Of a stretch of 64,000 nt of DNA, positions 4,806 through 59,723 are shown piece after piece (within the stretch, counting starts at the first letter, position 1; each line of letters starts with the position of its first letter). Under the pieces are notes generated by a model. It ran no database searches. It saw only the letters and a list, made by a program, of their open reading frames with translations, and was not told the origin of the DNA. The stretch is from Candidatus Latescibacterota bacterium. Lineage in GTDB: Bacteria; Latescibacterota; UBA2968; UBA8231. The stretch covers positions 282,639-346,638 of the forward strand of contig CBDCNM010000002.1 of NCBI GenBank assembly GCA_965219385.1. The letters run 5' to 3'. A program made the position numbers and the translations under genes.

Positions 4806-5566
4806 CAGATTACTTACCCCCGCCCGTTCATAAAGTATAATCGTAGCGCTGGGGTTGCCCGGCTTCCATGGGTAGGGGCTGACCCCGTTCCTTGAGATGG
4901 TGCTTGTTGGATGCATCCAAGCAGACCAAAGGATACACCGCCGAATAGGGTTGATGGTAGACGATGAGCACCTCCTCCATGGCGCAGACAACCTCGGCGT
5001 TGGCCTGGGGGGGCATGCGCCATTGTTTTTTCAACCAAGGCTTAAGTTCGTTTTTTTACCAGCCGACGCACACTGCAGGCCGACAAAATGTCGGCCTGCT
5101 CAAGCCGCACCATTTCGTCGGCTAATAGTTGCAGGGTCCATCGCTCACGCCCGGGGGGCGTCTTCGAACCGGCCAGCATGCTCAGATGGGCCTCATGCCG
5201 ACCATCAAACGTTTGATTGCCCGGATGGGAGCGCTTCTTTCGATGGAGGGCCCCTTCCAGGCCCTGTTCGACGAAGGCTTTGCGCCACCCGCTCGACGGT
5301 AGGCCGACTCACCTCCAGCGCTTGACTGAGGTGGGTATCGGTCCAGCCGGCTTGATCGGCTTTGAGTAGCATACGGGCGCGGGTCCGTTGTTGGGCCGAA
5401 GACGTGCCCGTAGAGATGAACTCTAATAAATAGGACCGCTCCGCTTCGCTCAAAAGGATGTGGTGCCCGGATGGCATGAAAACCTCCTTGAGATCGGAAA
5501 AAGAGCATGCAATTTCAAAGATCGTTCTTCTTGGCCCATCCATCAAATAAAAAAATTGGACTACTA
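4806..5566 (-). mobile_element. Truncated IS630-family element
   Basis: Transposase pieces TRARMLLKAD, RWTLQLLA, KNELKPW with an A7 slippery run at 5051-5057, AMEEVL..Y, VCLD, YERAGVSNL; end sequence TA|GTAGTCC at ~5566; cut off near 4806. Confidence 0.8.
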
Positions 5567-5699
5567 GGTAGGCTTCCATGATGCCCAGCCGCATTGGCGT
5601 CTCCGAGCCCTGGGCCAAGGTCATCCACGATCCGCGCTCGTTGAACGGTTCGAACAGGTCCTGAAGCCGCTCCTTTTCCCGTTGGATGAATTCGCTCAT
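5567..5699 (-). pseudogene. Hypothetical gene interrupted by the IS630
   Basis: ATG 2 bp after the upstream stop; MSEFIQREKERLQDLF...EAYL runs into the IS end at a TA. Confidence 0.45.
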
Positions 5700-5701
5700 G
5701 G

Positions 5702-6007
5702 TTACCCCTTCACCAGAATGATGTCCTCGACCTTGCGGCCGTCAGGCAGCTTGGAGACTTGGTGCTTCTGGAACACCTCCAGCAACCGGCTGCGTTCCCG
5801 CTCGCTGCCCACGACGATCACTTCGATGTTGTCCAGCAGCGTGATGGAATGCTTGAAGATCGTCTCGTTGCTGCTGTTCCTGGCGTATTGCTTCCACTCT
5901 GCCGGAGTACTCCCGAGATGGCTGGAAACATAGTCGTCCTGCACCTTGCCGAAGGCGTCATGGTTGTAGCTGATGGCGTCCTGGCGCCGCAGCAACCGTT
6001 TCTTGAT
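5702..6007 (-). pseudogene. C-terminal fragment of an unknown protein (possibly phage- or toxin-associated)
   Basis: Coding-like codon bias (LLRRQDAISYNHDAFG...SNETIFKHSI); the 5' end is fused to other fragments. Confidence 0.4.
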
Positions 6008-6082
6008 CCGCCTCGCGCTCCTGGATCCAGATCGGATTCAGGTCCATGGACCAGGTGCGATCCAGTTCGTCGGACTTGGCTT

Positions 6083-6203
6083 TCCAGAGGAATCGCTCCA
6101 TGGCGAAGTATTGAAGCAACTCGTTGAATGGCCGTCGTTCACTCCTAGACCGGTTGAGGAGACGTTGCCGGACGGACGCGGGCGCGTTGCGGGGATGCGT
6201 CAT
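6083..6203 (-). pseudogene. Truncated AbiEii/AbiGii nucleotidyltransferase toxin (N-terminal ~40 aa)
   Basis: ASVRQRLLNRS...FNELLQYFAMERFL is the typical AbiEii N-terminus; its start overlaps the AbiEi stop (ATGA). Confidence 0.8.
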
Positions 6204-6793
6204 ACCATTGCCTCCAGATAGGGCCGCATCACCTTTTCGACCCGGCAGATCCTGGCGTATTCGAGCAGTTCGCCCAGGTCGAACCCGTTTCGTGTCTTGT
6301 GGAGTTTCACCGCTTCCAGCACCACGTCCATACCGATCTTGTTGCGAAACTTGAAGCAGTCAGCCAGGGTTTTTTCGCGGCAGTAGACTTTGATGGGCAC
6401 TCCATCAAGCAGATGCTTTTCGATGCCGGGTTGGTATGCTTCATTCGAGAATCTGTGAGCCCGGATGGGGGGATAGTCGAGTGACGGCACCCGTGAGTCT
6501 CTTGGTACCGCCACGGAAATCTTATGGGGAATCTGGGTCGTGATTCCATGATAGGCCAGCGCGGAGACGAGACAAACGACGGCGTTGGGGAAGCGAAGGC
6601 TGACCGTGACCAGATCAGGGTTGCCGAGCGGAGGTAGTTCCCGCAGCCGATAGATGCCTCTGCTGACCGGCTCGATGACGCCCCTGTCCTTGAGAGCATA
6701 CAGCATGTAGCGTGTGATCCCGTGCGCGATGGCCTCGCTCATTCGAAGTTGGCTACCGTACCTGCGGAAGATTTCTTCAGGTTGTTCTTTCAT
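6200..6793 (-). CDS. Type IV toxin-antitoxin AbiEi-family antitoxin
   Basis: VSRGIYRL, VCLVSALAYHGITTQIP, EKTLADCFKFRNKIGMDV; ATG at 6793 with GGAG upstream. Confidence 0.9.
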   Translation of the reverse strand: MKEQPEEIFRRYGSQLRMSEAIAHGITRYMLYALKDRGVIEPVSRGIYRLRELPPLGNPDLVTVSLRFPNAVVCLVSALAYHGITTQIPHKISVAVPRDSRVPSLDYPPIRAHRFSNEAYQPGIEKHLLDGVPIKVYCREKTLADCFKFRNKIGMDVVLEAVKLHKTRNGFDLGELLEYARICRVEKVMRPYLEAMV

Positions 6794-7248
6794 CTCCGGC
6801 CCCAGACAAATCGTCTCCATTTGATTATAAATGGTAACAATATGTCTAATTCTGGCCAAGAAATCAAGAGAAACATCACAGGAACACGGGGTCCGTCATC
6901 ACCGAGACCAGGGACACCGTCTCCTCGCCTCTGCCGCTGCTAGGCAGACAGACCGGGGGACGGTCGCCAGGATCTCGTTGGAGTCCGCTCGGCATCGCCA
7001 GGACGAATGCCGTCGGCACCCACAACGGGCCCCCCGTGCTCACGGCCGCTGCCGCTGTCTGGTGATCCGCCGGACCCCTGTGCCCCGCGGATGGATTACC
7101 TACCGGGGCGGGTTAGGAAACGTCGACATCCGGCTATCCGTGCGCAACCCCCACGGTTGCACTCGGATACCAAACGTTCCGCTTCGAAACGGAGAATCGG
7201 GGATAATGTGTGGGGCGGCGCAAGTGCTTGAAAAAACGCCAGATACGC

Positions 7249-11723: not shown

Positions 11724-11871
11724 ATCTCATCTCCTTGACAGACATAAAAAAATAACGGAGACAAGGAGATAAGTCAAGGGGAAGACCTTGACAAATAAGG
11801 GGATAGCCTCCACCTTAAAAGGCGTTGGAGCACCGCTCACCAAGGTTTTGCAGGTTATTTTCTCGCGGTTC

Positions 11872-14800
11872 ATGAGAGAATCCGGTTGCCGTTCTAGTAT
11901 TGCTTTCTTGTTTGCCCTCCTGCTGATGGCTGGATCTGTAGTTGCAGAGGTCGGGATAGTCCAGACCAGTTCGGCCCATTTGCGGATTGTCTATGAGGCC
12001 GCAGGTAGCAATTGGCGGATGGATACCGGTCGCAGCGTCCTTGTAGGTCTTCCTTTGGAAGGAGAGGTGGGCCTGCAAATCATAGAAGCCCAGGTCGCAG
12101 AGCAACTCGAGGCGGAGGAGGTTTTAGATGAAGTGGGGGAGGATCTGAGGCTGGATGGGCCGGCGTTTTTGGGGCAACCTGGCTTTGTGCGCGACCAGCG
12201 GGTCGTCCAGCTGGTCTTTGCACCCCGGCGGGAAGCGGAGGGTCGGATTCTGGTATACAACAGAGTGGTGGTGGAACTGCATTTTACCGGGGGGCTGAGT
12301 TCGGGGGGAAGGTGGGGCCAGGATAAATGGGGCGAAGAATTTTACCGTCGTACCCTGCTCAACTACGAGCAGGCCAGGAAATGGCGTCGTTTCAGGTCCC
12401 GCTTTGCCCCCAAAGCCGGCTTGCAGTCAGCGGCTACGTCGTTATTGAAAGTGGTAGTTCCCAGACAGGGTATGTACCGAATCAGCGGTCGGGATTTGGA
12501 GGCGGCCGGCCTCTCCCTGGAAGAGGTGGATCCAGCCCGGCTGCGGGTGCTGTACGGCGGAGGGGGGATCCTGTCCTTGAGCCCGGCGCAGGGAGGAGTG
12601 GAACGGGAGGAGATCGCCAGTGTCATCGAAGACGGTGGGGATGGGCGTTTCGCAGTGGACGATTTTATCCTGTTTTACGGGGAGCCGGTGTCGCGTTGGG
12701 AATACAACAGGGAAGAGAGCCAGTACCAGTACCTGAATAATCCCTACACCGGAGACAACGTGTACTGGCTGGAGATCGGGGGCGAGGAGCCGGGCAAGCG
12801 GGCTGCTGTGCGCAGTGGAGCGCTGCAGGACTCCAAGCCACAGGTGCCGCAAAACTATCGGGTGAAGATCCATGCAGAATCTGAGGATTTTATCCGGACC
12901 CAGACTTTCGGTATCAAATCCGGTTATGAATGGTATTGGCATGAATTTCGTCGCAACGCCCGGAATTTCTCGAATGTGATACAGAATGCTATTGATACAC
13001 CAGTGAATATCCGGCTACATTTTTTCGCTGTAAAAACCGATGCTGGGAAATTTCCATTAAGCCAGTTCGATGTAAGGTGGAATGACAAATTAATCAACCA
13101 GATCTCCTTTGAAGGCGTTCCGAGATTTGCCACAGAACTGGAGGCTTCGGAAGGAGCACAAGAAGGAACGAACCAGTTGGGGTTATTCCACAATGGACAT
13201 GTCGCCCGTCTGGACTGGTACGAACTGGAGTACAGTCGTGAATTTGTGGCTAAGAGGGGGGAACTGATCTTCGGCTCGCCGGTCTTTGAAGGGATAGCCG
13301 AGTTTCGCCTGACCGGCTTTGCCGAGGAGCGTCCCCGGATTTTCGAGTTTTCCGAGGATCTGGTCGAGATCAAAGCCTTTGAATATGATGCCACGGCCGG
13401 CACCGTGGTCTTCCAGGACAGCCCCGGCGAGATACCGCGGCAATACCTGGTGGCCGGGCCGGCGCGGTGGAAACGGCCCGACCGCATCGAGTTGTATCAC
13501 CCCGGCGCCCTGCGGACCCTGGGCAATGGAGCGGATTATTTGATCGTTACCCATCAAGACTTTGCCTCGGCCGCCCAGCGTCTGGCAGCCTGGCGGGAAC
13601 AGGACGATCGCTTCGGGGCGCCCCTGCAAACTATGGTGGTGGATGTCCAGGATATCTACGACGAGTTTTCCGGCGGCTTGCTGGACCCGGCGGGCATCCG
13701 CAATTTTTTGGCCTACGCGGTAGAAAACTGGAGTCCCAGGCCTTTCTTCGTGGTGCTGTTCGGGGATGGTTCGTACGACTACAAAAACAACTCCGGGACC
13801 AGCCCGGGCAACTGGATCCCGCCCTATCAGGATGGCGACAGTACTTATGATGAATGGTACGTGCGCGTCATCGGCGAGGACGAACTGCCGGACCTGGCCA
13901 TCGGCCGCCTGACCGTACAGACGGCTCAAGAGGCGGACATCGTGGCCGACAAGCTCATTGACTACGATCGTCAGCCCCAGGTCGGCCCCTGGCAGAGCCG
14001 GGTCTTGCTGGTGGCCGACGATCTGAGCAACCCTAAGTATCGGGATCGCCTGGAGACTTTTTTCCTGAACGATGCGGAGTTTCTGGCTGCTACTTTTCTG
14101 CCACGAGGACTGGACCTGGTGAAACACTACATCGCGCAATTCCCTCTGGAGGGACGGGAAAAACCCCGGGCGCGGGATGAGTACATCCGCCTTTTTAACG
14201 AGGGGGCGCTGATTCTCACCTACATCGGCCACGGCAATCCCGAGGTGCTGGCGCACGAGCAGATGTTTGTGTTGTCGCGCGATTTTCCGGTCCTGGACAA
14301 TGGCCGGCGCCTCCACTTCATGTACACGGCGGCCAGCCAGACGGGCGTGTTCGACGATCCGGTGCGCAACTCCATGCCCGAGACCATGCTTAAAATGCCC
14401 AATGGCGGGGTGATCGGCATGATTTCGGCCACCCGGGTAGGGTATCACACCAGCAATATGGTTCTGGCCTACAGCTTTCACCGCCAGATGTACCGCTCCG
14501 GGCGCGAGCACGTGCCCGTGGGCACGGCGCTGATGGAAGCCAAGCAGCTGTCGCACTCTTCAGTCTCCATTAGGGGGAGGAAGAATATACGGCGCTACTC
14601 CCTCATCGGGGATCCGGCCACGCGTCTGGCCCGGCCGCGCTACCAGGCCGTGCTCCAGGTAGCCGATACCCTGCGGGCTCTCCAGGAGATCCATATCCAG
14701 GGTCAGGTGTTGCGGCCGGACGGGACGCCGGCGAACGATTACAACGGGCAGGCACGGGTGCAGGCCTTTGATTCGTCGGTGCTGAGCAAGCTGGACGGGC

Positions 14801-15642
14801 TGAACTACCAGCGGGTGGGCGGCCCACTGTTTCGCGGTATATTCCCCGTGGAGAACGGCCGCTTTACGGCCGCCTTCCGGGTGCCCAAGGATATCACCTA
14901 CCGGGGAACCAATGGGCGGGTGAGCGCCTATCTGTGGAGTGCGGACCAGCCCGCGGGCTTTGGCTCGGTCGAGGGGTTGCAGCTGGCCGGCACGGCCGAG
15001 GGGGTCGAGCCGGATCAGCAAGGGCCGGAAATCATCATTGGTTTTGCCGGCCGGGAACAGGTTGAGAATGGACAGTTTGTCCCCCAGCGACCTCTCCTGC
15101 GCGCCACCATCCGGGATGAGAGCGGGATCAACGTAACAGGGGAGACCGGCCATGAAATTGTTCTGACCGTTGATGAGACCATCTTCAAGGTGACGGACGG
15201 TTTTACCAGTGCTGGAGGGAACTATCGGGAGGGGCTGCTGGAATACCAGCTGCCGGCTCTGGAACCAGGGGCGCATGTGGTTGGTTTGAAAGCCTGGGAT
15301 ACCTTCAACAACTCGGCTCAGACCCAGGTGGAGATCCAGGTGGGTGAGGCCGGGGATGTGGCCCTGGCGGACGTGCTGTTTTACCCCAATCCCCTGCAGG
15401 GGGAAGAGGGACATTTTACCTACAACTTGTCGGCGCCGGCCCGTTCGGTCCAGATTCAGGTGTTTTCGTTGGGCGGCAAGCTGGTGGACGAGTTGGAAGG
15501 GACAACGCAGTTGGGCTACAATCAGGCGGCGTGGCAGCCGGCGGTGGCCCTGGCCAATGGGACCTATCTCTATCGCATACAGGTGCGCAGCGAGGAGGAT
15601 GGGGTCGCCGAACAGACTGCGGCCATACAGGTGATGAAATGA
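11872..15642 (+). CDS. porU: PorU-like T9SS sortase (peptidase C25 fold) with C-terminal CTD
   Basis: Signal peptide; ADYLIVTH, IYDEFSGG, LFGDGSYDYK, IGRL, YIGHG; C-terminal YPNP...NGTYLYRI. ATG 11872 preferred because the TTG at 11788 is part of a TTGACA box. Confidence 0.88.
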   Translation: MRESGCRSSIAFLFALLLMAGSVVAEVGIVQTSSAHLRIVYEAAGSNWRMDTGRSVLVGLPLEGEVGLQIIEAQVAEQLEAEEVLDEVGEDLRLDGPAFLGQPGFVRDQRVVQLVFAPRREAEGRILVYNRVVVELHFTGGLSSGGRWGQDKWGEEFYRRTLLNYEQARKWRRFRSRFAPKAGLQSAATSLLKVVVPRQGMYRISGRDLEAAGLSLEEVDPARLRVLYGGGGILSLSPAQGGVEREEIASVIEDGGDGRFAVDDFILFYGEPVSRWEYNREESQYQYLNNPYTGDNVYWLEIGGEEPGKRAAVRSGALQDSKPQVPQNYRVKIHAESEDFIRTQTFGIKSGYEWYWHEFRRNARNFSNVIQNAIDTPVNIRLHFFAVKTDAGKFPLSQFDVRWNDKLINQISFEGVPRFATELEASEGAQEGTNQLGLFHNGHVARLDWYELEYSREFVAKRGELIFGSPVFEGIAEFRLTGFAEERPRIFEFSEDLVEIKAFEYDATAGTVVFQDSPGEIPRQYLVAGPARWKRPDRIELYHPGALRTLGNGADYLIVTHQDFASAAQRLAAWREQDDRFGAPLQTMVVDVQDIYDEFSGGLLDPAGIRNFLAYAVENWSPRPFFVVLFGDGSYDYKNNSGTSPGNWIPPYQDGDSTYDEWYVRVIGEDELPDLAIGRLTVQTAQEADIVADKLIDYDRQPQVGPWQSRVLLVADDLSNPKYRDRLETFFLNDAEFLAATFLPRGLDLVKHYIAQFPLEGREKPRARDEYIRLFNEGALILTYIGHGNPEVLAHEQMFVLSRDFPVLDNGRRLHFMYTAASQTGVFDDPVRNSMPETMLKMPNGGVIGMISATRVGYHTSNMVLAYSFHRQMYRSGREHVPVGTALMEAKQLSHSSVSIRGRKNIRRYSLIGDPATRLARPRYQAVLQVADTLRALQEIHIQGQVLRPDGTPANDYNGQARVQAFDSSVLSKLDGLNYQRVGGPLFRGIFPVENGRFTAAFRVPKDITYRGTNGRVSAYLWSADQPAGFGSVEGLQLAGTAEGVEPDQQGPEIIIGFAGREQVENGQFVPQRPLLRATIRDESGINVTGETGHEIVLTVDETIFKVTDGFTSAGGNYREGLLEYQLPALEPGAHVVGLKAWDTFNNSAQTQVEIQVGEAGDVALADVLFYPNPLQGEEGHFTYNLSAPARSVQIQVFSLGGKLVDELEGTTQLGYNQAAWQPAVALANGTYLYRIQVRSEEDGVAEQTAAIQVMK

Positions 15643-15771: not shown

Positions 15772-16824
15772 ATGAAAAAGCTTTACTCTCTTTTACTGGC
15801 GGGAGTTTGTATCTGGGGCAGCGTCCAACAGGCCTTGGCCACTCCCGAAAGCCAGGCCGCAGTGTTGTTCTTGCTGGTCGAACCCGGCGCCCGGGCCATC
15901 GCCATGGGCGAGTCCTATGTGGCCATCTCGGATGATGCCACCGCAAGCTATTTCAACCCCGCGGCCCTGTCGGGACAGACCAAGAAGGCCCTCAATTTCA
16001 CCCACAGCAAGTGGCTCCCCGAACTGGCCACTGACATGTCCTACGAGTTTCTGGCTTATTCGCAGCCGGTGGAAGGATGGGGAAATATCGGACTCAATAT
16101 CGCTTTGCTGGACTTGGGGGCTCAGGTGCACACCGGCGAACGAGGCGAAAACCTGGGGGATTTCAGCAGCTATGATGTGGCTGTATCAGCGGCCTACGGT
16201 TCGGAAATCGCGGCCAATATGTCGGCTGGAATCGGGCTGAAGTTTATCCGCAGCAGTTTATCTCCCACCTTTGGCGCAGGTGAAGAACGGGGCAAGGGTG
16301 TGGGCAACAGCTTTGCCACGGACCTGGGCTTTTTGTGGCGGCTTTCACCCAGCCTGACCTTTGGTTCCGCGCTGCGCAATCTGGGCCCCAAGATCGCCTA
16401 TATCGACGTCAGCCAAGCAGACCCCCTGCCCCAGCACATTGTCGCCGGTTTGGCCTATAAAATGATGGACACTGAATTCAACGATGTACTGATTTCCGTG
16501 GATGTGTACAAGCCCCTGATTGCCGATGGCTCGTTCGCCGGCAACCTGGTCAAGGCCTGGACCGACGAGTCGCTCGGGAACGAGTTCAAGGAAATGGATC
16601 TGCACGTCGGCGGCGAGTACAAGTACGGTCTGTCGACCCGCCAGGACGAATCTTTTTTTGCCATGCGTGGTGGTTATTCGCTGGATAACGACGGCGAACT
16701 GAAGGTATGGACGGTTGGCGTAGGACTGAAGTACAATATGTTTCAGGTAGATGTGGCCTACATCATCGGTGATGGAACCCCTATCAACAACAATACGCGT
16801 TTCTCCCTGAATCTGACATTCTGA
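15772..16824 (+). CDS. porV: PorV-family outer-membrane shuttle beta-barrel
   Basis: FLLVEPGARAIAMGE, A.YFNPA.L, KWLPEL, NLGPKIAY, C-terminal RFSLNLTF; directly after porU. Confidence 0.88.
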   Translation: MKKLYSLLLAGVCIWGSVQQALATPESQAAVLFLLVEPGARAIAMGESYVAISDDATASYFNPAALSGQTKKALNFTHSKWLPELATDMSYEFLAYSQPVEGWGNIGLNIALLDLGAQVHTGERGENLGDFSSYDVAVSAAYGSEIAANMSAGIGLKFIRSSLSPTFGAGEERGKGVGNSFATDLGFLWRLSPSLTFGSALRNLGPKIAYIDVSQADPLPQHIVAGLAYKMMDTEFNDVLISVDVYKPLIADGSFAGNLVKAWTDESLGNEFKEMDLHVGGEYKYGLSTRQDESFFAMRGGYSLDNDGELKVWTVGVGLKYNMFQVDVAYIIGDGTPINNNTRFSLNLTF

Positions 16825-16865: not shown

Positions 16866-19823
16866 TTGATCAATTGTAATTTCTTGGTTTTCACCTTCTT
16901 TTTCCTGTTGGTGCTCTTGGGGCCTGCAGGAGAGGCTCCAGCCGTCCAGGAATGGAATATTCTGGTGTTGCGGGCGGATTTTCCCCTGGAGGAACCGGAC
17001 GAACCCAGCACCACGGGAACGGGCGCTTTCGATCTGCGGACCTTCGAAAGCGCCTTGTCCGGCTATCTTTATCCTTATGATACCCCACCCCACGATCGGC
17101 TCTATTTCGACAACCATCTGGAAGCCCTTGCGCGCTATTACCGGATTGTGTCCAGAGGCGAGGTCGAGATCCATTTCGAGGTCTTCCCGCGAGGAATTGA
17201 CCAGGTTTATACCCTGCCCGAATCCGCTCTGAGTTACGGTAGAGGCCGCACCCCGGAGGAAATCGGGACCAAGTGGGTCCAATTGTTTCGCGCCGCCGTG
17301 GAGTTGGCGGATGCGGATCCGGCAGGCCCGCTGTTCGGGGATTTCAATAGCTTCCTGGTATTCCATGCCGGCGTCGGCCACGAGACCGGCGCGCTGAACG
17401 ACATCCGTTCGGTGTACCTGGCGCCCCAAGATATGGCGGCCTTTCTGCAGGAGCCGCTCGTGGTGGACGACGGGCAGTTCGAAATAACCGACGGCTGGAT
17501 CCTGCCCGAGGCCACCAGTCTGAGGGGACAGGGTGGTTTGAACGGGCTGCTGGCCAAGTTCTTCGGACATCAACTGGGTTTGCCCGGTCTGTCGAATTTT
17601 GCCGATGGTCGGCCGGCTGTCGGGGAATGGAGCTTGATGGACGTCGGCGCCCATGCCCTGGGTTTTGTCCTGGTGGCGGATAGTCTGCAAGCTGTGGTGG
17701 GTTTTGTCCCGTCGCACCCCATGGCCTGGAGCAAGGCGCGTCTGGGCTGGATCGAACCCCTCGAGGTCCGGCGGGATACCACCGTTTCACTGGTGGCTAC
17801 GGACCGCGACGCGGATCTGCCCAAGGCGGTGCGGATTCCCATCACCGAAAAAGAGTATTTCCTGCTGGAGAACAGGCAGCAGCGCGGCACCTCTGGTGTA
17901 CCTCCCGGGGTCAGGAGTCCGTACCAGGGATCGACTATTGGGTGGATCGGAAGGGAACAGATCGAGTTTTCCCGGAGTGATGGAGCGGGTGTGTGGTTGG
18001 GCGTGGAGGACTACGATGCCTTCGTCCCAGGGTCGGGAATCCTGATCTGGCACGTGGACGAAGCACGCATCGAGGACGGATTCGCGGCCGGTGCCATAAA
18101 TAACGATCCAGTGCGGCAGGGCATTGTCCTGGAGGAGGCGGATGGGTACCGGGATATCGGCAACCCCGCCTTCGCTCGTCTGATCCAGATCGAGGGGGGT
18201 CCCGATGATCCGTTCTACCAGGGGGGGCAGACCGCCTTCGGACCTGGGACCCGGCCGGATAGCAGGAGCAACGCGGGGCATGCCAGTGGCATCCATATTG
18301 AGGTACTTTCCGAGCCCGAGGATACCATGCGGGTCGAGATTCGTTTCACCGGAGAAAAGTCGGGCTGGCCGCTCCTGGTGAATGGGGGCAGCCGTTTGCA
18401 CGGGGCGGATGTGGATGGTGACGGGGAGGTGGAACTTTTGGTGGAGGACGGCACCGGGGTCCAGGTGAACTGGGCAGATATGAGCAAAGCGCCCTGGAGA
18501 CTGGAAGAGGTGAGGCTTTTGGCCAGCGCGGATGCAAACATGGATGGCCGGGCCGAGATTTTTGTCGTCCGAGATAAAGAAGTCGGTGCCTGGGAGGTGG
18601 AGTCGGGGGAAGCCCTGTGGACCAGCACCCTGGATGCCGTGCCCCTAAGCGGGCTCTTCTTCGGCACGGGTCTGGGGCTTTTTCCCGGGCGTTCCATCCT
18701 GGCGCTTAGCGGCACGGGTCTGGACCTGCTGGATGGAAACACCGGTGAGGTCATCAGGCAGGAGAGCGAAAGGCTCACCGGCATGACCGCGGCAGACCTG
18801 GATGGCGATGCTGCGCTGGAAGTGGTGGTGGCTTCGATGCAAGGGGTCTGGAGGCTGGGTGCAACAGGCCTGGACCTGCTCCAGGAAAACCAGGCAGGAT
18901 CTTTGCTGCCTTTGGTGAGCGGCGATCTGGAGGGGGATGGTCGAGCCGAAATCGTACTGGTCGAACCCACTGGAGAATTGGAGGTAGTGGCGGAGCGGAA
19001 TGCGGGATTCAAAGCGGTTTTGCGGGATGCTACCCAGGGGCCCGTCCTCGGCGATATAGACGGCGATGGGTACCTGGAAATCGTCGTGGCCGGCACCAGC
19101 CAGGTCCACGCAATCCGGCACAATGGCATCCGGCAGGCCGATTTTCCCGCGCGCCTGGCGCGTAGCGATGGAATTGGACGCCTTGAAGTCTCCGCCGTGC
19201 TGCTGGATTTGGACGGGACGGGAGGACAGGAGATTTTTCTGGGCACCCGCAAGGGGGTGTACGGGTTGGATACCAGAGCCACACTTCTGCCCGGGTTTCC
19301 GCTGTTGACCGCGGAAGCGGTGTCTTTTTCTCCCCTGGGGGCGGATCTGGACGGCGATGGCCTGCTGGAGCTGGCCGCTCTGACCGGAGAGGCGCTGTAC
19401 CTGTGGGAGCCGCAGGAGATTTCGCCGGTCTACCAAGGGCGCTTGGCAGGGTGGGGGCAGGACGGCTATAGCGCAGCCCGCACCTATGCCCATCCCGGAT
19501 TCGGCGCCGCGCCGGAGCCGGCGGTCGGATTGCTGCCCGAGGGAAAGGTTTACTGCTACCCCAATCCAGTGGCCAACGGAGGGTCGGTACACCTGCGGTT
19601 CTTCCTGAACCAGCCGGCCAGAATTGCCCTGGAGGTCTACGACGCCATTGGAGATCGCGTGGAATACCTGGAAAAGGAAGAGGGCCTGGTGGCGCCGGCG
19701 GAGAACGAAATTGGTTTTTCCACCAGCGGGTACGCCAGTGGCCTGTACCTTTGCCGGCTGGAGGCCAGAACCGCAAGCGGCCAGCAGGAGGTGGTTTTTG
19801 TCCGAATGGCGGTGAGTCAATGA
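16866..19823 (+). CDS. Immune-inhibitor-A (M6)-like domain + FG-GAP/VCBS repeats + T9SS CTD; metal-binding motif degenerate
   Basis: VFHAG, WSLMD.G, WSKARLGW, EYFLLENRQ, GILIWHVDE, LEEADG; DxDGDG repeats; YPNP...SGLYLCRL; AKFFGHQLGLPG in place of HEFGHxLGLPD. Confidence 0.8.
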   Translation: MINCNFLVFTFFFLLVLLGPAGEAPAVQEWNILVLRADFPLEEPDEPSTTGTGAFDLRTFESALSGYLYPYDTPPHDRLYFDNHLEALARYYRIVSRGEVEIHFEVFPRGIDQVYTLPESALSYGRGRTPEEIGTKWVQLFRAAVELADADPAGPLFGDFNSFLVFHAGVGHETGALNDIRSVYLAPQDMAAFLQEPLVVDDGQFEITDGWILPEATSLRGQGGLNGLLAKFFGHQLGLPGLSNFADGRPAVGEWSLMDVGAHALGFVLVADSLQAVVGFVPSHPMAWSKARLGWIEPLEVRRDTTVSLVATDRDADLPKAVRIPITEKEYFLLENRQQRGTSGVPPGVRSPYQGSTIGWIGREQIEFSRSDGAGVWLGVEDYDAFVPGSGILIWHVDEARIEDGFAAGAINNDPVRQGIVLEEADGYRDIGNPAFARLIQIEGGPDDPFYQGGQTAFGPGTRPDSRSNAGHASGIHIEVLSEPEDTMRVEIRFTGEKSGWPLLVNGGSRLHGADVDGDGEVELLVEDGTGVQVNWADMSKAPWRLEEVRLLASADANMDGRAEIFVVRDKEVGAWEVESGEALWTSTLDAVPLSGLFFGTGLGLFPGRSILALSGTGLDLLDGNTGEVIRQESERLTGMTAADLDGDAALEVVVASMQGVWRLGATGLDLLQENQAGSLLPLVSGDLEGDGRAEIVLVEPTGELEVVAERNAGFKAVLRDATQGPVLGDIDGDGYLEIVVAGTSQVHAIRHNGIRQADFPARLARSDGIGRLEVSAVLLDLDGTGGQEIFLGTRKGVYGLDTRATLLPGFPLLTAEAVSFSPLGADLDGDGLLELAALTGEALYLWEPQEISPVYQGRLAGWGQDGYSAARTYAHPGFGAAPEPAVGLLPEGKVYCYPNPVANGGSVHLRFFLNQPARIALEVYDAIGDRVEYLEKEEGLVAPAENEIGFSTSGYASGLYLCRLEARTASGQQEVVFVRMAVSQ

Positions 19824-22800
19824 AATGCACGGTGCTGGGGGCGCTCGTCCTCGTCGTCCAGATCCCGGCGGCTTTTTCCCAGAATCATCCCGAGTTGGAC
19901 TGGCAGGAACTGGAGACGGCGCACTTTCGCATCTTCTATCATCAGGGGCTCGAGAGAGCCGGAGCTCGGGCCGCGGAGATTGCCGAAGCAGCGTATGGTC
20001 CGGTGACCCGGCTCTACGGGTACGAACCTGGAGAAAAGGTGCGGATCGTGCTCAAGGACTACGACGACTACGCCAATGGGGCCGCCTTTTTCTACCACGA
20101 TACTATTGAAATCTGGACCACGTCCCTGGATCACGACGTTGATTTGCGCGGGACTTCGGACTGGCTGAGCAATGTGATTACCCACGAATTCGTCCACATC
20201 GTTTCCCTGGGCGCTTCCCGCAAAGCACCCCAGCGCTGGCCGGCTTTCTACCTGCAGTACTTTGGTTACCAGCGGGAGGAGAATCGCCCGGATGTGCTGA
20301 TTGGCTATCCGGATGTGCTGGCATCCTACCCGGTACTGGGTACGATTGTGGCCATGTGGTTTGCCGAAGGGGTGGCCCAGTACCAGGTCGAGGGCGCCCG
20401 CCACGATCGCTGGGATTCCCACCGCGACATGATCTTGCGCACCGCTGTATTGAACGATGCGCTGCTTTCCTTTGATGAGATGGGGGTGTTCGCCAAAAAA
20501 GGTTTTGGCAATGAGTACGTGTACGATCATGGCTACGGCTTGGTCAGATACATCGCCCGGACCTATGGCGATGAAAAGTTGGCCCAGATCTGCCGGGCGA
20601 TCTCGGGATGGTCGGAAATGGAGATCAACGGAGCCATCCAAGAGGTCCTGGGAGTATCCGCGGAGGAGCTGTACCGGAGCTGGCGAAAATCCATGCAGCA
20701 CAGATACCAAAAGCAGGTGGCCGATCTGGGCGAGTTGCACCAGGGCGAGGCGATCGGCGACCAGGGGTTTTCCAATATCCGCCCGGCCTATTCGCCGGAT
20801 GGCCGCTACCTGGCCTATCTGTCTACCCAGAAAAGACACTACGGTCCTCACCTGCTGGTGTTGCGGGATATGGAGAGCGGGGAAGAGAAGGTCCTGTACG
20901 GAGGGGTCGTCTCTTCCGTGAGCTGGTCGCCCGACAGCAGGCGTTTGCTTTTCGTTATGAAAAGCAAGGGGGATAAGTACGGGTCACGCCAGGCGGATAT
21001 CTACCAGTACGACTTGGACAGCGGCGAAGTGGGGATCTTCTCCAGAGTACTATGGACGGTGCCGGCCATGGTGAGTGGTCATGCGCCGGAGTCGCCGAAA
21101 ATCCGCCGTTTGAGCCATGGCCTGCGCGCGCTGTATCCGGCCTATTCGCCGGATGGGGAGTGGATCGTCTTTGTGCACAACCAGGGGAGCAGCAACAATC
21201 TCGGATTGATGAAAGCGGATGGCAGCCAGGTCCATTACCTGACGGATTTTAGCGACGGCACCCAGCTCTACACTCCACAGTGGTCGCCCGATGGTCGCAG
21301 TCTGGTCTGCTCCATAACGCAGGAAGGCCAGCGCGACATTGCCTTGTTGGGGGTTGCCCGGGAGAAAACCCAGCAACTGGCCGCGACAATGCCCCTGGCG
21401 GCTGCGAGCCAGGCGCGCTTGGAGGTTCTGGTGGCCACGCCGGCTACGGACCGCGATCCTGTGTGGAGCGCGGACGGCAAAGAGGTGGTCTTTGCCTCGG
21501 ATATCAGCGGCCTCTTCAATCTCTACGCGATCCAGATCGAGACCCGGCAGGTACAGCGGCTAACCAATCTGGTCGGCGGAGGCTTGAGCCCCACACTCGA
21601 CCCAGAGGGCAAGGTGGCTTTTGCCGCCTATGGCGAGAAGGGATACGAAATTCGCCAGATCGACCGGGAGAGGGCAGCGGCGGCAGAGCTACCCATGCGC
21701 CCGGGAGTGGATTTCGGCGATCATTTTATCTCCAGCCCCAACACCCCGAAGGATGCGCTCAAGGCCCAGCCCTATGGCATCGATTTTCTCAAGACCTCGC
21801 TGATGCCCCGCCTGATGTTGGACGAGGGACGTTTCAAGGGAGGGATGTACCTGAGTGCCGGAGATGTACTGGGGCGTCAGGCTATTTTCGCCGGGGCAGC
21901 CCTGGCGCCGACAAACCGGGACCGCGATTTGTTTTTAATTTACCAATACAGAAAGTGGCGTCCGACCCTCTTCCTGGAGTTCTTCCACCAGCGGCGGCAC
22001 TCGGCGCGAGGAGACAGTTCGGAAGCAAAGGACTTTATCGTCACCGGAATGAATTTCGTTCTCAACCAAGTCAGTGTCGGTCTGCGGAGCAAGCTGGGAA
22101 AGGACAGTGAACTGGACCTGTCCATGACCTATGATCGCTACGATACCAGCATTTGGGGAGATGCCTTCCAACCCAGACGAGATGGTAGCATCGGATTTGA
22201 GCGCGTGCCGGTAAAACCCTTTGGCTACACCTATCTGAACGGTTTCGATCTGGGACTGACCTACCGCTACGAATCGGTGGCGCGACGCAGGGATCGAGAC
22301 ATCAACCCGCGCCAGGGCCGCAGGATCTACTTCCGCTACGACCGCATGTTCAATAAGTTCATCGAAGGCTTCGACGAGCAGAATACTTCATTTTTACAAG
22401 AGGAGTTCCTCAATCTCTCCTACAATCAATTCACCCTGGACTGGAGTGAATATATCGGCTTGCCCTGCAACAACACCCTGGGATTGCGCCTGTACAGCGG
22501 CTGGATCGACAGCAAAAAGGTGGATGATAAGGAAGTGGTCAACGACTTCTTCGACTACCATATCGGTGGCCTTCAGTACATGAAGGGGTACACCTTCTTT
22601 AGTCTGGAAGGGCGCAAGGCTCTCATGGGGCAGACCACCTTGCGCTTTCCCATCCTGCCGGATGTCAGGAAGCGGTTCCTCCATCTTTACTTCGACAAGG
22701 TGTACGGTGCCTTGTACGGAGATATGGGCAAGGCCTGGGACGATAAGTGGGACGACCTGGACCCGAATTTTGGCCGCAAGGGGCCGCTGCGCGATCTGGG

Positions 22801-22939
22801 AGGGCAATTGCGTTTTGATCTGATCTCCTACTACAGTATGCCCACCCGGGTGCAGATGGATCTGGCCTACGGAATTGACGAGGTGGAGTACAAAAGTCCG
22901 TGGAAGTTTTATCTTGCGGTGTTGTTTGGATATTTGTAA
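19820..22939 (+). CDS. Gluzincin-like peptidase + TolB/PD40 propeller + Omp85/BamA-like C-terminal barrel
   Basis: Signal peptide; ITHEFVH...WFAEG.A; repeated PAYSPDG/WSPDG; C-terminal beta-strands (NPRQGR, MKGY, YGD.GKAW). Confidence 0.8.
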   Translation: MKCTVLGALVLVVQIPAAFSQNHPELDWQELETAHFRIFYHQGLERAGARAAEIAEAAYGPVTRLYGYEPGEKVRIVLKDYDDYANGAAFFYHDTIEIWTTSLDHDVDLRGTSDWLSNVITHEFVHIVSLGASRKAPQRWPAFYLQYFGYQREENRPDVLIGYPDVLASYPVLGTIVAMWFAEGVAQYQVEGARHDRWDSHRDMILRTAVLNDALLSFDEMGVFAKKGFGNEYVYDHGYGLVRYIARTYGDEKLAQICRAISGWSEMEINGAIQEVLGVSAEELYRSWRKSMQHRYQKQVADLGELHQGEAIGDQGFSNIRPAYSPDGRYLAYLSTQKRHYGPHLLVLRDMESGEEKVLYGGVVSSVSWSPDSRRLLFVMKSKGDKYGSRQADIYQYDLDSGEVGIFSRVLWTVPAMVSGHAPESPKIRRLSHGLRALYPAYSPDGEWIVFVHNQGSSNNLGLMKADGSQVHYLTDFSDGTQLYTPQWSPDGRSLVCSITQEGQRDIALLGVAREKTQQLAATMPLAAASQARLEVLVATPATDRDPVWSADGKEVVFASDISGLFNLYAIQIETRQVQRLTNLVGGGLSPTLDPEGKVAFAAYGEKGYEIRQIDRERAAAAELPMRPGVDFGDHFISSPNTPKDALKAQPYGIDFLKTSLMPRLMLDEGRFKGGMYLSAGDVLGRQAIFAGAALAPTNRDRDLFLIYQYRKWRPTLFLEFFHQRRHSARGDSSEAKDFIVTGMNFVLNQVSVGLRSKLGKDSELDLSMTYDRYDTSIWGDAFQPRRDGSIGFERVPVKPFGYTYLNGFDLGLTYRYESVARRRDRDINPRQGRRIYFRYDRMFNKFIEGFDEQNTSFLQEEFLNLSYNQFTLDWSEYIGLPCNNTLGLRLYSGWIDSKKVDDKEVVNDFFDYHIGGLQYMKGYTFFSLEGRKALMGQTTLRFPILPDVRKRFLHLYFDKVYGALYGDMGKAWDDKWDDLDPNFGRKGPLRDLGGQLRFDLISYYSMPTRVQMDLAYGIDEVEYKSPWKFYLAVLFGYL

Positions 22940-24483: not shown

Positions 24484-24529
24484 AATGCGCCGGGTACCCT
24501 GATCATTCAGTGTCTGAGGCGGTTTGTCC

Positions 24530-26170
24530 ATGGCTTTGCGCAATCCACCAATACTCGGGCTTGTCTTTCTGCTCCTGGCCGTCTTTTCCACGGTCGAGGC
24601 CCGTGTCTGTGGCACCCGGTTCGTCGAGCACTACAGGCAGCGCTTTCCCCTGCCCGCAGCCAAGCTTCTCGCCCCCGAGCAGGAAGAGGGGGAGATTACC
24701 CTGGGCACCCAGCTACATTTCCTGGTTTTCAACCGTTTTTCCCTGGTGCCGGCCACCTGCCGGTACGTGGGGGAGCACGCTTATATCTTTGTCGAAGACG
24801 CGCAGTGGGACACCAATGGGGGGCCGGTCGTACAACAGGATGTGGATGAACTGGGCGAGTTGTTCGAGCGTTCCACCCCGTCGGATCTGGATCGGGGAAT
24901 CTACAGCCTGGAGGTGGAGGCTTTTGGAGCGCCGGCGGATGTGGATGGGGACGAGCGGATCTTTATACTGATCCTGGACGTAGATCCAAGCAGTCGCCAG
25001 GTGGATGCGGTCGGGTTTTTCGATCCTTGGGTGGCGACCCATGCTGACCCCCAACTGCGCCGGGACACCCTCTATCTGGACGCCACGGTTGTGCGGCGGG
25101 CCCGCTATCTGGCCCGGGGCACCCTGGCCCACGAGTTCCAGCACCTCATCCATTGGGCCCACGATGACGACGAGGAAGTCTGGGTCGATGAGGGACTTGC
25201 CGGCTACGCCGAGGAACTGGTCGGATTTCCCGAAGCCGATCCGGCCGTTGTGCCGGCTTTTCTGAAAAGGCCGGATATCGACCTGACGGCATGGCACAAA
25301 CAGGCCTACAATTATGGATCTACTTATCTATTTATGTCGTTCCTGGCCGAAAAATACGGAGCGGAATTGATTCGCAGGATGGTGGAGGCGCAGGGCAATG
25401 GCATCCTGGGGATTGACGAGGCCTTTGCCAATAGCGGTCTGGATCAGGATTTCGAGGGGGGCTGGAAACAGTGGATCGCGGCCAATTATGGCGGGGATAC
25501 CATGTACGGATACGCGGCCCTGCAGGGTCGCCAGGTCCTGGCTGCCAGGATACCGCCCCCACCTCCTGAAGGGAGGAGGTTGAGACTCCTGGTCGGCAAT
25601 CGGTGGGGGACGAGCAACATCCTGATCCGCGCGGAAGGCGGTATCAAATTGGATTTCTCAGGGGAACGGGATAAAGGCTACAGGGTATGGTTGTATACCA
25701 TGGGTAACGACGTAACTCGCCTGGAAGAACTGGTGCTGGATGATGAGAACAAGGGCAGGGTCGAGGTGATAAATGTGGATAGCCTGGCGCTGGTCGTGGG
25801 GCTCACATCGTTCCAGGGGGGGCTTTTTGAGATCTTGGCTCAAGCCTCGATCCCCACTGCAATAAGGGTTCAGACCAGGCGCGATCCGGTGCAGGCATCA
25901 GATTTGGGCGCGGTTTACCCCAATCCTTTCAACGGATTTATGCGGATTCCTTTTCACCTATCGGCCGCGGGAAGCCTGGAGTTGAGTTTGTACAATGTTC
26001 TCGGGCAGCAGATCCGGGTGTTGCAACGAGGATTTCATCAGGCCGGTCGCTACGAAGCGGTATGGGATGGACGGAATGGAGGGGGTAGCGAGGTTGGAAG
26101 CGGGACCTACCTGGTGGTGTTGCAGACTGGGTCCGGGCGCGTGGTGCAAAGGATTAGTCTGGTGAGATAA
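24530..26170 (+). CDS. Secreted zinc metallopeptidase (M30/hyicolysin-like) with T9SS/FlgD CTD
   Basis: Signal peptide, CGT, TLAHEFQHLIH...WVDEGLA; CTD YPNPFN...WDGRN..SGTYLV. Confidence 0.8.
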   Translation: MALRNPPILGLVFLLLAVFSTVEARVCGTRFVEHYRQRFPLPAAKLLAPEQEEGEITLGTQLHFLVFNRFSLVPATCRYVGEHAYIFVEDAQWDTNGGPVVQQDVDELGELFERSTPSDLDRGIYSLEVEAFGAPADVDGDERIFILILDVDPSSRQVDAVGFFDPWVATHADPQLRRDTLYLDATVVRRARYLARGTLAHEFQHLIHWAHDDDEEVWVDEGLAGYAEELVGFPEADPAVVPAFLKRPDIDLTAWHKQAYNYGSTYLFMSFLAEKYGAELIRRMVEAQGNGILGIDEAFANSGLDQDFEGGWKQWIAANYGGDTMYGYAALQGRQVLAARIPPPPPEGRRLRLLVGNRWGTSNILIRAEGGIKLDFSGERDKGYRVWLYTMGNDVTRLEELVLDDENKGRVEVINVDSLALVVGLTSFQGGLFEILAQASIPTAIRVQTRRDPVQASDLGAVYPNPFNGFMRIPFHLSAAGSLELSLYNVLGQQIRVLQRGFHQAGRYEAVWDGRNGGGSEVGSGTYLVVLQTGSGRVVQRISLVR

Positions 26171-51672: not shown

Positions 51673-54600
51673 ATGACCGAGAAAATCTCAATCCATGTGG
51701 CTCTACAAGATTTCGCCGCCTCTGTGACAGCCAAAATGACGCAGGCCACCGCTGGCGAGCCCGAAGACCAGGTGCGCAGTCCGTTCGAGACCTTCATGGC
51801 CGATGCGGCCCGCGCGCGCGGCTGGAACGTCGTCTGCACGGGCGAAACACCCCTGCCCGACCGTCTCGGCCGGCCCGGATTACGCTGCCCATCGCAACCA
51901 ACTACTCGCCGGATATGTCGAGCTCAAAGCCCCTGGTGTCGGCGCAACACCCACTCGTTTCAGAGGCCACAACCGCGATCAGTTCAAGCGCTTCTCTGCT
52001 ATTCCCAACATTCTCTACACCGACGGCAATGAGTGGGCGCTCTATCGCGGCGGCGAACTGGTCGACAAGGTCGTCCGTCTGGCAGGCGATGTCGCCGCCG
52101 ACGGCAGAAAAGCCGTCGCGATAGAGGACGCCCGCGGGGTCGAGCGTCTTTTGCGCGATTTCCTCTCGTGGGAGCCGATCCTGCCACTGGACCGCAACGG
52201 CAAGATCGACCTCAAAGGATTCGCCGAGCTGCTGGCGCCGCTTTGCCGCATGTTGCGGGACGACGTGACGGACGCGCTCAAAGACCCAGGTTCGCCCCTC
52301 GTGCAGCTTGCGGGAGACTGGCGGCAACTGCTCTTCCCGGATGCTTCGGACGAGCAGTTCGCCGACGCCTACGCCCAGACCGTCACCTTCGCCCTGCTGC
52401 TGGGCTGCAGCGAGGGGGCCGATCCGCTCACCCTTGAAAGCGCGAGAGAGGCCCTCGCCGCACAGCACAACCTGCTGTCGCGGGCGCTGCAAGTTCTGAC
52501 GGACCCCGGCGCGCGCGCCGATATAGCCGCTTCCCTCGACCTGCTGCTGCGCGTGATCGATGTAGTACCGCTCGCCACGCTCACCGGTCCCGAGGATCCC
52601 TGGCTCTATTTCTACGAAGACTTCCTCGCCGTCTACGATCCCGATCTGCGCAAGGACGCCGGGGCCTACTTACTACACCCCGGTCGAGGTCGTCCGCGTC
52701 CAGGTGCGCCTGATTGACGACCTGCTCGTCCACCGTCTCGGCAAGCCGCTCGGTTTTGCCGATCCTGGCGTCGTCACGCTCGATCCCGCCGTGGGAACTG
52801 GAACCTATCTGCTCGGCGTCATCGAACACGTCCTCGGCCGCGTCAGAGCCGAGCAGGGCGCGGGAGCGGTCGCCGGCCAAGCCACCGCACTGGCCGAAAA
52901 CCTCTACGGCTTCGAGCTGCTGGTCGGCCCTTACGCGGTGAGCGAACTGCGCGTCAGCCGTGCGCTGCGCGGTAACGGCGCAACGCTGCCCGCCGACGGT
53001 ACGCACATCTACCTGACCGACACCCTCGAAAGCCCACACGCCGAGCCTCCGCGGATGCCGTTTATTCTGCGGCCCATCGCCGATCAGCACAGAAAGGCGC
53101 TCGCAATCAAGAGCGCGGTCCCGGTCATCGTCTGCTTGGGCAACCCGCCCTACGACCGACACGATGCGGTAGATACAGAAAACGAGGCCAATCTTTCTCG
53201 GTATGGTGGATGGGTTCGATTCGGTGACCCTTTGCCCGGAAATACGGTTGAAGGTAAGAGGGAAAAAAGAAGGGAACTCAAGACCGCCGAGGCCCGGCTT
53301 GAAAGAAGACAGCAACTTGCCATCCTGAAGGATTTCCTCAACCCCGCCCTCGCCGCCGGGCACGGTGTCCATGTCAAGAACCTCTACAACCTCTACGTCT
53401 ATTTCTGGCGTTGGGCGCTGTGGAAGGTCTTTGAGCAAGACACCGCCGAAGGCCCCGGCATCGTCAGCTTCATCAGCGCGTCGAGCTACCTCAGTGGTCC
53501 CGCTTTCTCCGGGATGCGCGAGCACCTGCGCCGGATTTGCGACGAAATCTGGATTCTCGATCTCGGTGGCGAGGGACGTGGGTCGCGTAAAAGCGACAAC
53601 GTCTTCGCGATCCAGACACCCGTCGCCATTACTGTGGCTTTCCGTGTGGGGGAAGCGGTAATAGATAAACCCGCGAAAGTTCACTATGCCCGGATTGAGG
53701 GGACACGAGAGGAGAAACTTGCTGCGCTCAACAACATCAACGACTTTGCGAAAGTGAAATGGCAGGATTGCCCGGATAAATAGGGTCAATAGACGATGTT
53801 CCCACCGATTGAGGAGTTTGCGAAAGTGGAATATAAATGGCAGGCCCCGTTTCGCCCGGCAGGTAAAGGCGCTTACTTCGATTGGCCGCTTCTGATTGAT
53901 CTCATGCCGTGGCAGCACTCGGGAGCGCAATTCAAGCGGACATGGCCGATTGCACCAGACGCGGAAACATTGGAACGGCGCTGGCGCGGATTATTAGGTG
54001 CCGAGGATCGCGCTGAGGCGTTCCGCGAGACAGGAGACCGTACCATCAATGGGACGTATCGCGTCGCTCTAACAGATCGGAGCGACTCGACGCCGATTTC
54101 CAAACTACCGAATAACACTCCCCTTCCCGAAGTCCGAAGATACGCGTATCGCTCTTTTGACCGCCATTACATCATCGCGGACGGTCGCTTGATGTCCCGC
54201 CCGCGCCCCGACCTGTGGCACGCCCACGGAGAGCGGCAGGTGTATTTGACGACTCTGCTGAAAGATTCTCTAGGTCAAGGACCAGCGACAACCGCCTGTG
54301 CGTTGATTCCCGACCTGCATCACTTTTCGGGGCGCGGCGCAAAGGACGCGATTCCCCTCTACCACACCGCCGACGTCTCGCAGGCGAACATTACCCCTGG
54401 CCTGCTCGAAATCCTCGGCAAGGCATACCAACGCAACGTCACGCCCGAAGATTTCCTCGCCTACGTTTACGGCGTGCTGGCGCAACCGGCCTTCACCGCG
54501 CAGTTTGAGAACGAGCTGGAAACACGCGAACTGCGCCTGCCCATCACGAAGGAGGCGGCACTGTTCGAGAAAGTCCGCAAGGCGGGCGCGCAATTGCTGT

Positions 54601-55118
54601 GGCTCCACACCTACGGCGAGCGTTTCGTCCCCACGGGACAGACACGCGGTCGTGTTCCGCCCGGTGCGGCCAAATGCGTCAAGGCCGTCCCCGGCGACGC
54701 CGACGGCTACCCCGAATCGTTCACTTACAACGACACAACCCAGACGCTCCGCGTCGGCGAAGGCGAGTTCGCACCCGTCGCATCCGAGGTTTACGAGTTC
54801 GAGGTTTCGGGCCTCAAGGTCGTGCAGTCCTGGCTCAAGTACCGCATGAAGAAAGGGGCCGGCAAGAAATCCTCGCCCCTCGACGACATCCGCCCCGAAC
54901 GCTGGACCAGCCAGTTCACCACGGAATTACTCGAATTGCTCTGGGTTCTGGAGGCGACGGTGAAGTGCTATCCTGAACAGGCGCGGCTGCTCGAAGCCGT
55001 CGTCGCGAGCGACTGCTTCCGGGCCGAGGAATTGCCGCAGGTCCCGGAGGAGATGTGCAAGCCACCAAAGGCACGGACCATCAGTGGTGGCCTGTTCGAC
55101 ACGGAGGATGGCGGTTAA
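51673..55118 (+). pseudogene. Single-chain restriction-modification enzyme (PD-(D/E)xK + N6-adenine MTase + ISP-like specificity domain), disrupted
   Basis: PD...ELK, GAYYTP, LDPAVGTGTYL, GNPPY, YAYRSFDR; frameshifts near 51875 and 52670 and an in-frame TAG at 53781-53783. Confidence 0.85.
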
Positions 55119-59575: not shown

Positions 59576-59723
59576 TGCTTCACTCCTTCCTCGTCCGCAC
59601 CTTGCCCGCCACGGTCTCTCTTGCCCGGTACGAGCCCAGAATCTTGACCCTCGTGGAAATAGGCGCGGGCGTCCATTCCTTAAAAAGCGACTAGCGCATC
59701 GGCGTGCTTCACGCTTTTTCCTT

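Follow-up and report, generated by a model that had tools for sequence, protein, structure and literature searches.

A PorU orthologue with serine at the catalytic cysteine position in Candidatus Latescibacterota, a predicted serine transpeptidase of the gingipain fold

PorU (PG0026) of Porphyromonas gingivalis, the C-terminal signal peptidase and sortase of the T9SS, is a C25 protein like the gingipains RgpB and Kgp; the title of its PDB entry, 6ZA2, describes it as latent. To our knowledge, clan CD, with its caspases, legumain, separase and gingipains, has been treated as cysteine-only, and substitution of Cys by Ser is the usual way of killing its enzymes. Gorasia et al. (PMC4560394) give the PorU cut site as X/(GSA)(VLI) and describe Arg722 of PorU as a sortase-type residue that is absent in the gingipains, which are Arg- or Lys-specific Cys hydrolases. 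The Gln282/Trp284 region of RgpB provides S1-pocket residues and lid (PMC4357240), a probable Cys-His-Asp triad is described for Kgp (PMC6426963), and the anchor used in transpeptidation is supplied by PorZ (PMC8545088). One natural case of a clan CD enzyme inactivated by Ser is metacaspase 4 (MCA4) of Trypanosoma brucei, which is of caspase fold, keeps the His, carries Ser at the nucleophile position and was shown to be inactive, beside active paralogues (PMC3220528). For TEV protease, which is of another fold, PMC4576821 reports that the Cys-to-Ser switch costs about 10^4-fold before re-adaptation and is recoverable by evolution. The literature that we searched, with subscription journals and supplements outside its scope, held no report of a Ser-bearing PorU or of such a system in Latescibacterota.

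The window, the whole stretch of 64,000 nucleotides analysed here, comes from a Candidatus Latescibacterota bacterium and contains a porU orthologue at 11788..15642 (+). The open frame is 1284 residues in length, and its translation probably starts at the Met near residue 29. The PorU sortase family profile NF033707 matches the protein with 656 bits against a cut-off of 420, over profile positions 5-1087 of 1095, which confirms the identification as PorU made in the first-pass annotation from the letters alone; its residue assignment also stands. The C25 (gingipain/caspase-fold) catalytic domain covers residues 584-947 (13537..14628, +; PF01364, E 6.3e-79), and the C-terminal T9SS signal covers residues 1199-1266 (TIGR04183). 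His815, at the catalytic His position in YIGHG, is encoded in frame by CAC (14230..14232, +) and was aligned by phmmer with the His of PorU and RgpB, so the His is intact as had been read. Ser850, in MYTAA-S-QTGVFDDP, is encoded in frame by AGC (14335..14337, +); phmmer aligned it to the Cys of ITATCDF in PorU (6ZA2) and to the Cys of FDVACVN in RgpB (1CVR), in agreement with the reading that Ser replaces the catalytic Cys. The motif had been described as aligning without gaps, which holds; between His and nucleophile, two one-residue gaps are needed, the distance being 35 residues here and 33 in PorU and RgpB. The chain numbering of 6ZA2 is offset by two residues, chain Cys688 being the published C690. 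Thus, in place of the His-Cys dyad of clan CD (family C25), the protein has His-Ser. Like the P. gingivalis protein it has the full-length family match, the His, the equivalent of Arg722 and the fold; different from it, it has Ser for Cys690, and judged by sequence it is a PorU orthologue (hereafter Ser-PorU) that fails in one defining feature, the catalytic Cys.

The model of the C25 domain has a pLDDT of 93.2, and it matches RgpB with a Z-score of 41.9 (rmsd 2.3, 327 residues aligned) and Kgp with a Z-score of 37.5; the caspase/gingipain fold is therefore predicted to be present in Ser-PorU. Like the gingipains, the protein shares the fold of the catalytic domain and the aligned positions of His and nucleophile; different from them, it carries Arg883, which was aligned to PorU Arg722 in 6ZA2, 1CVR being compared as well. 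Behind Arg883, the loop of the substrate pocket contains two residues peculiar to the clade, Gly885 and His887 (14434..14448, +). G885 was aligned to RgpB Gln282 and H887, by extension, to Trp284. The invariant acidic pair Asp744-Asp745 (14017..14022, +) is a candidate for the third catalytic residue, and D744 or D745 possibly plays the Asp part of a triad like that of Kgp.

Since AGC is one base from TGC, the first-pass annotation had also allowed for a recent inactivating mutation or a sequencing error. This explanation is refuted and its residual probability is negligible: Ser is fixed across a clade made up of family f1 and family f6, the latter belonging to another class, and occurs in the clade both as AGC and as AGT. 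The contigs of public runs X3 and X5 show 0 differences over 14000-14700, although the window may itself derive from one of these runs; RNA run X12 covers two short pieces, neither over the Ser850 codon. The fixation of Ser in orthologues, for which an alignment had been proposed, was borne out by the 120 best protein matches (of 1069, one being the window's own protein), all of which have His and Ser and mostly come, among close relatives, from Candidatus Latescibacterota, and by 188 of 190 clade members.

To place the Ser sequences, the 120 best matches, the best 150 representatives and the genome loci were pooled; 391 of 441 aligned rows were kept after removal of identical or gappy rows. 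In the 391-row tree, all 188 Ser sequences of more than 50% identity group together, with support 1.0, in a single clade that has 190 members, the remaining two having Cys at position 850. The clade is nested among Cys PorUs, and outside it the nucleophile column is Cys in 151/151. An IQ-TREE analysis of 45 chosen rows, from which the nucleophile column and the columns on either side of it had been removed, gave the Ser clade a support of 100/100. Where PorU was read in other members of the phylum, Cys was found in 19/19. One Cys (TGC) copy of PorU is nested in the Ser clade (locus L145, G009:C108:1200-8300), and the other copy of the same genome has Ser; L145 is known from one assembly and its Cys codon differs from a Ser codon by one base; it is likely a natural revertant. 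Sequence P0129, also with Cys, lies near the base of the clade with weak support (87/79), and it was not counted as a reversion because it may be ancestral and its position is weakly supported. P0188, with Ser, without the His and at 35% identity, was set aside as an unrelated degenerate copy. The suggested check for TCN codons at Ser850 was run, giving AGY in 77/77 Ser codons, but it is uninformative, because other invariant Ser columns also hold a single codon family (S685, AGY 77/77; S862, TCN 78/78); the AGY-only usage would simply fit an origin from a Cys codon.

The tree of the clade has a length of 27.8 changes per site; by parsimony the median column changes 15 times, and 33 of 368 columns show zero changes, among them D744, D745, H823, E824, A848, A849, F855, D856 and R883. 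H815 and G814 show one change each, both probably stemming from the same incomplete and garbled sequence (P0136), H815 being kept in 189/190 members. The D744-D745 pair is present in 190/190 sequences of the Ser clade and in 151/151 and 150/150 of the Cys set. By these counts, His815, Arg883 and the acidic residues are not relaxed, although strong conservation is not peculiar to His815 and extends to H823 and H887. Relative to the 151 Cys orthologues, fixed changes are concentrated around the site (A849, S850, Q851, P864, G885 and H887). The idea of a substitute nucleophile was dropped: no other conserved Cys was found in the C25 domain across the 190 clade sequences, and the sole frequent-Cys column near the site, column 880 (48/190), is Ser in the window protein.

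Such conservation could also be read as that of a conserved pseudoenzyme, whose intact pocket binds the cargo linker with no cut and which, together with PorV and PorZ, holds or passes the cargo non-covalently or presents it to a protease of another family. We consider this main rival less likely than not, at about half the weight of the favoured reading given below. MCA4, with its retained His and dead Ser (PMC3220528), is a precedent within clan CD, and binding alone could hold both the pocket residues and the cargo motif described below under selection; conservation, motif and PorZ retention would be expected of a motif-binding, non-cutting protein as well. Two features of the clade stand against it. 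Ser850 is replaced by Cys only (2/190) and never by Ala, Gly or Thr, whereas the other AGY-coded Ser columns S672, S737 and S889 drift to Gly, Thr, Ala or Asn; moreover, the sortase Arg (R883) is retained in 190/190.

The T9SS context of PorU is present in the window's genome, which is 94% complete. SprA is above cut-off, 14 PorV-family matches were found, and 63 of the 66 matches to the signal domain TIGR04183 are over cut-off. A PorZ-like protein is encoded at G000:C2:713231-715465; NF052228 matches it over its length with 205 bits, below the cut-off of 260, and it matches 5M11 with E 5e-16. The likeness to the P. gingivalis PorU system thus extends to an adjacent porV, PorZ-like protein and SprA in the genome, and cargo sites of X/(GSA)(VLI) type. 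Of the PorK/L/M/N ring and motor of the canonical Bacteroidota T9SS, GldM and GldK were looked for: the GldM profile gave 0 matches in this 94% complete genome, with a control that was silent as well so that absence does not follow, and the GldK profile gave partial matches only, all below cut-off. This may be a difference from the P. gingivalis T9SS. With SprA, PorV, PorU and the PorZ-like protein encoded beside this lack of a GldM match, the genome possibly has a T9SS without the known motor.

Among the genomes compared, the PorZ-like match occurs in 64/64 of family f1, 2/2 of f6, 32/34 of the other PorU-bearing genomes and 0/51 of the PorU-less families f2-f4. PorZ, known for feeding transpeptidation, therefore co-occurs with Ser-PorU, which is a further point against the pseudoenzyme. 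Several f1 genomes carry additional or divergent Ser-PorU copies that adjoin a porZ-like gene of the same orientation. Going by their positions, such porZ-porU pairs are found on G005:C52, G005:C57, G027:C120, G019:C20, G013:C2, G017:C1, G007:C39, G138:C4 and G119:C1; judged from gene order, this is a duplicated porZ-porU cassette.

Downstream of porU, the window carries a gene for a porV-family shuttle barrel (15772..16824, +; NF033709, 243 bits against a cut-off of 90), a gene for an M6-like protein with a T9SS signal (16866..19823, +; NF052323, 315 bits, below the cut-off of 600), which is syntenic in relatives, and a gene for a fusion of MA-clan zinc peptidase, propeller and Omp85 (19751..22939, +; PF13485, PF07676 and PF01103), which is syntenic also where porU is missing. 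In the relatives examined, the M6-like and peptidase-propeller-Omp85 genes (window 16866-22939) adjoin porV with or without porU. The M6-like neighbour is related to an 'inactivated' protease family (NF052323), which lends the pseudoenzyme some further support. As a substitute cutter, which that reading could call upon, the zinc peptidase-Omp85 fusion is insufficient: it persists in two PorU-less loci examined, and there the cut motif is at chance level. These are G037:C1:2096000-2113000 (L306) and G056:C1:3392000-3410000 (L307), in which porV, the M6-like gene and the peptidase-Omp85 gene follow in order and porU is missing upstream.

In cargo proteins of the window's genome, T-A-V, T-A-I or T-S-V precedes the YPNPF motif by about 20 residues. 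The window itself encodes a T9SS cargo (24524..26170, +; TIGR04183) in which T-A-I, a cut motif of PorU type, precedes the signal domain by a similar distance of about 20 residues. The resulting motif, T/[GSA][VI], fits the PorU site X/(GSA)(VLI) given in PMC4560394. We counted it in 151 genomes of the phylum (64 f1, 2 f6, 34 other PorU-bearing and 51 f2-f4), grouped by family, the residue itself having been read in 46/64, 2/2 and 19/34 of the first three groups. The motif stands before the cargo signal in 1553/3813 cases (40.7%) in the 66 Ser-lineage genomes, in 304/1743 (17.4%) in the 34 other PorU-bearing genomes and in 23/739 (3.1%) in the 51 PorU-less genomes, against 2.8% by chance at random anchors; the DNA pattern used counts Thr-type sites before PNPFN signals only, and it undercounts other sites, probably most in the Cys group. 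In a first, smaller cargo sample the looser pattern [GSA][VLI][EDA] failed to separate the groups (Ser 37/94, none 17/49), so the contrast depends on patterns that also specify the position preceding the cut.

No NF033707 match near the cut-off was found in the 51 f2-f4 genomes, which are of the same class as the window; the best one (E 6e-83) comes from a long paralogue. SprA is kept in 5/5 PorU-less genomes tested, and the median number of PNPFN signals is 12 in f2-f4 genomes versus 55 in the Ser lineage. These 51 genomes keep signal-bearing cargo with no porU or porZ match, as a T9SS-like system without the attachment step, and may serve as a natural knockout of that step. The paralogues sampled from f2-f4 (10 of 51 genomes) form one clade, so the loss of porU was likely a single event, and we claim no P value for the contrast.

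The long paralogue raises the question of which protein would do the cutting. In the window's genome this second C25 protein (L113, G000:C2:1598130-1603706) is about 1850 residues in length; it has His, Cys and a signal domain but no sortase Arg. It is conserved across f1-f4, many f1 genomes included, but did not turn up in f6 or in the majority of genus g13. One could thus suppose that the Cys paralogue cuts and a dead Ser-PorU is only an adaptor. However, when 58 f1 genomes, each at least 88% complete, were searched, PF01364 matched just once in 22, 13 of these being on one contig; in the two f6 genomes, too, PorU was alone in matching PF01364. Of these 24 genomes with PorU as the sole C25 match, 23 were read, all with Ser, the unread one being G134; the 17 for which counts are available hold the motif at 485/1177 signals (41%). 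Conversely, the PorU-less families retain the paralogue, with Cys in 10/10 read, and lose the motif; in 3/3 PorU-less genomes tested, the long Cys paralogue is alone in matching PF01364. The motif is thus present with Ser-PorU regardless of the paralogue and gone where the paralogue alone remains, which indicates that the Cys paralogue is not the cutter, and the sortase Arg is present in 0/21 of the second-C25 sequences. On these genome comparisons the paralogue explanation is largely refuted, and we regard it as highly improbable. The same data set Ser-PorU apart from MCA4: in 24 genomes no C25 gene was found besides that of Ser-PorU, and the putative substrate motif of Ser-PorU goes along with it.

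Starting from what is established here, namely orthology, the model fold, the fixation of Ser, the unrelaxed His, Arg, Asp and Glu residues and the retention of PorV, SprA, a PorZ-like protein and the cut motif, we read Ser-PorU, the PorU of a type IX-like secretion system, as an active Ser transpeptidase with Ser850 as its nucleophile. We give this reading a probability of about 60%; it is predicted from genomes and not proven. The first-pass annotation had left the choice between a dead scaffold and a Ser sortase, and motif, PorZ and conservation favour the latter, short of proof. With slightly better than even odds, an essential Cys transpeptidase of caspase fold was converted into a working Ser transpeptidase, the first Ser-nucleophile enzyme of clan CD. 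The case would resemble the mixed Ser/Cys clan PA and the evolved TEV(Ser)X, in which, according to PMC4576821, the nucleophile switched within one fold; those are of chymotrypsin fold, whereas Ser-PorU is of caspase fold.

The chemical steps that we propose are modelled on P. gingivalis PorU and PorZ as described in PMC4560394 and PMC8545088. Cargo would be exported through SprA and delivered by PorV. His815, perhaps together with Asp744/745, would activate Ser850 for attack on the bond that follows Thr in T/[GSA][VI]; the signal domain would leave, with an ester replacing the thioester as acyl intermediate. The acyl-ester would then be resolved by an anchor molecule that the PorZ-like protein brings. 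The neighbouring fixed changes A849, Q851, G885 and H887 may be the adjustments that let the serine work.

An ester is what a Ser nucleophile gives as its intermediate, and a changed chemistry is conceivable on that ground: a reactive Ser850 might only hydrolyse the signal domain away, or transfer the cargo to a hydroxyl acceptor, with no amide link being made. The clade-specific fixed G885 and H887 in the pocket loop would suit such a change. Against it, both the gene for the PorZ-like protein and the sortase Arg have been retained, as in the amide-forming PorU, and we hold a changed chemistry to be distinctly improbable.

If Ser-PorU is indeed a Ser transpeptidase, clan CD becomes mixed, like clan PA, and how a dyad tuned to sulfur activates oxygen becomes directly testable. 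The natural Cys revertants, together with A849, Q851, G885 and H887, would show how the switch was made, and, more speculatively, a protein ligase that resists oxidation and recognises a short Thr/Ala-Val site could follow. If Ser-PorU is dead instead, T9SS cargo would be handled with no sortase chemistry in organisms that have retained PorZ.

Several other features of the window lie apart from the porU locus. Upstream of the pgk region, window 5205-6859 (-) holds an AbiEi-type antitoxin (PF13338) and a short HTH_23 open frame, the latter presumably a transposase remnant. A stand-alone type ISP restriction specificity domain (PF18135) is encoded at 53796-55118 (+), and a cluster of hydantoinase A/B and amidohydrolase genes is located at 56232-61811 (-).
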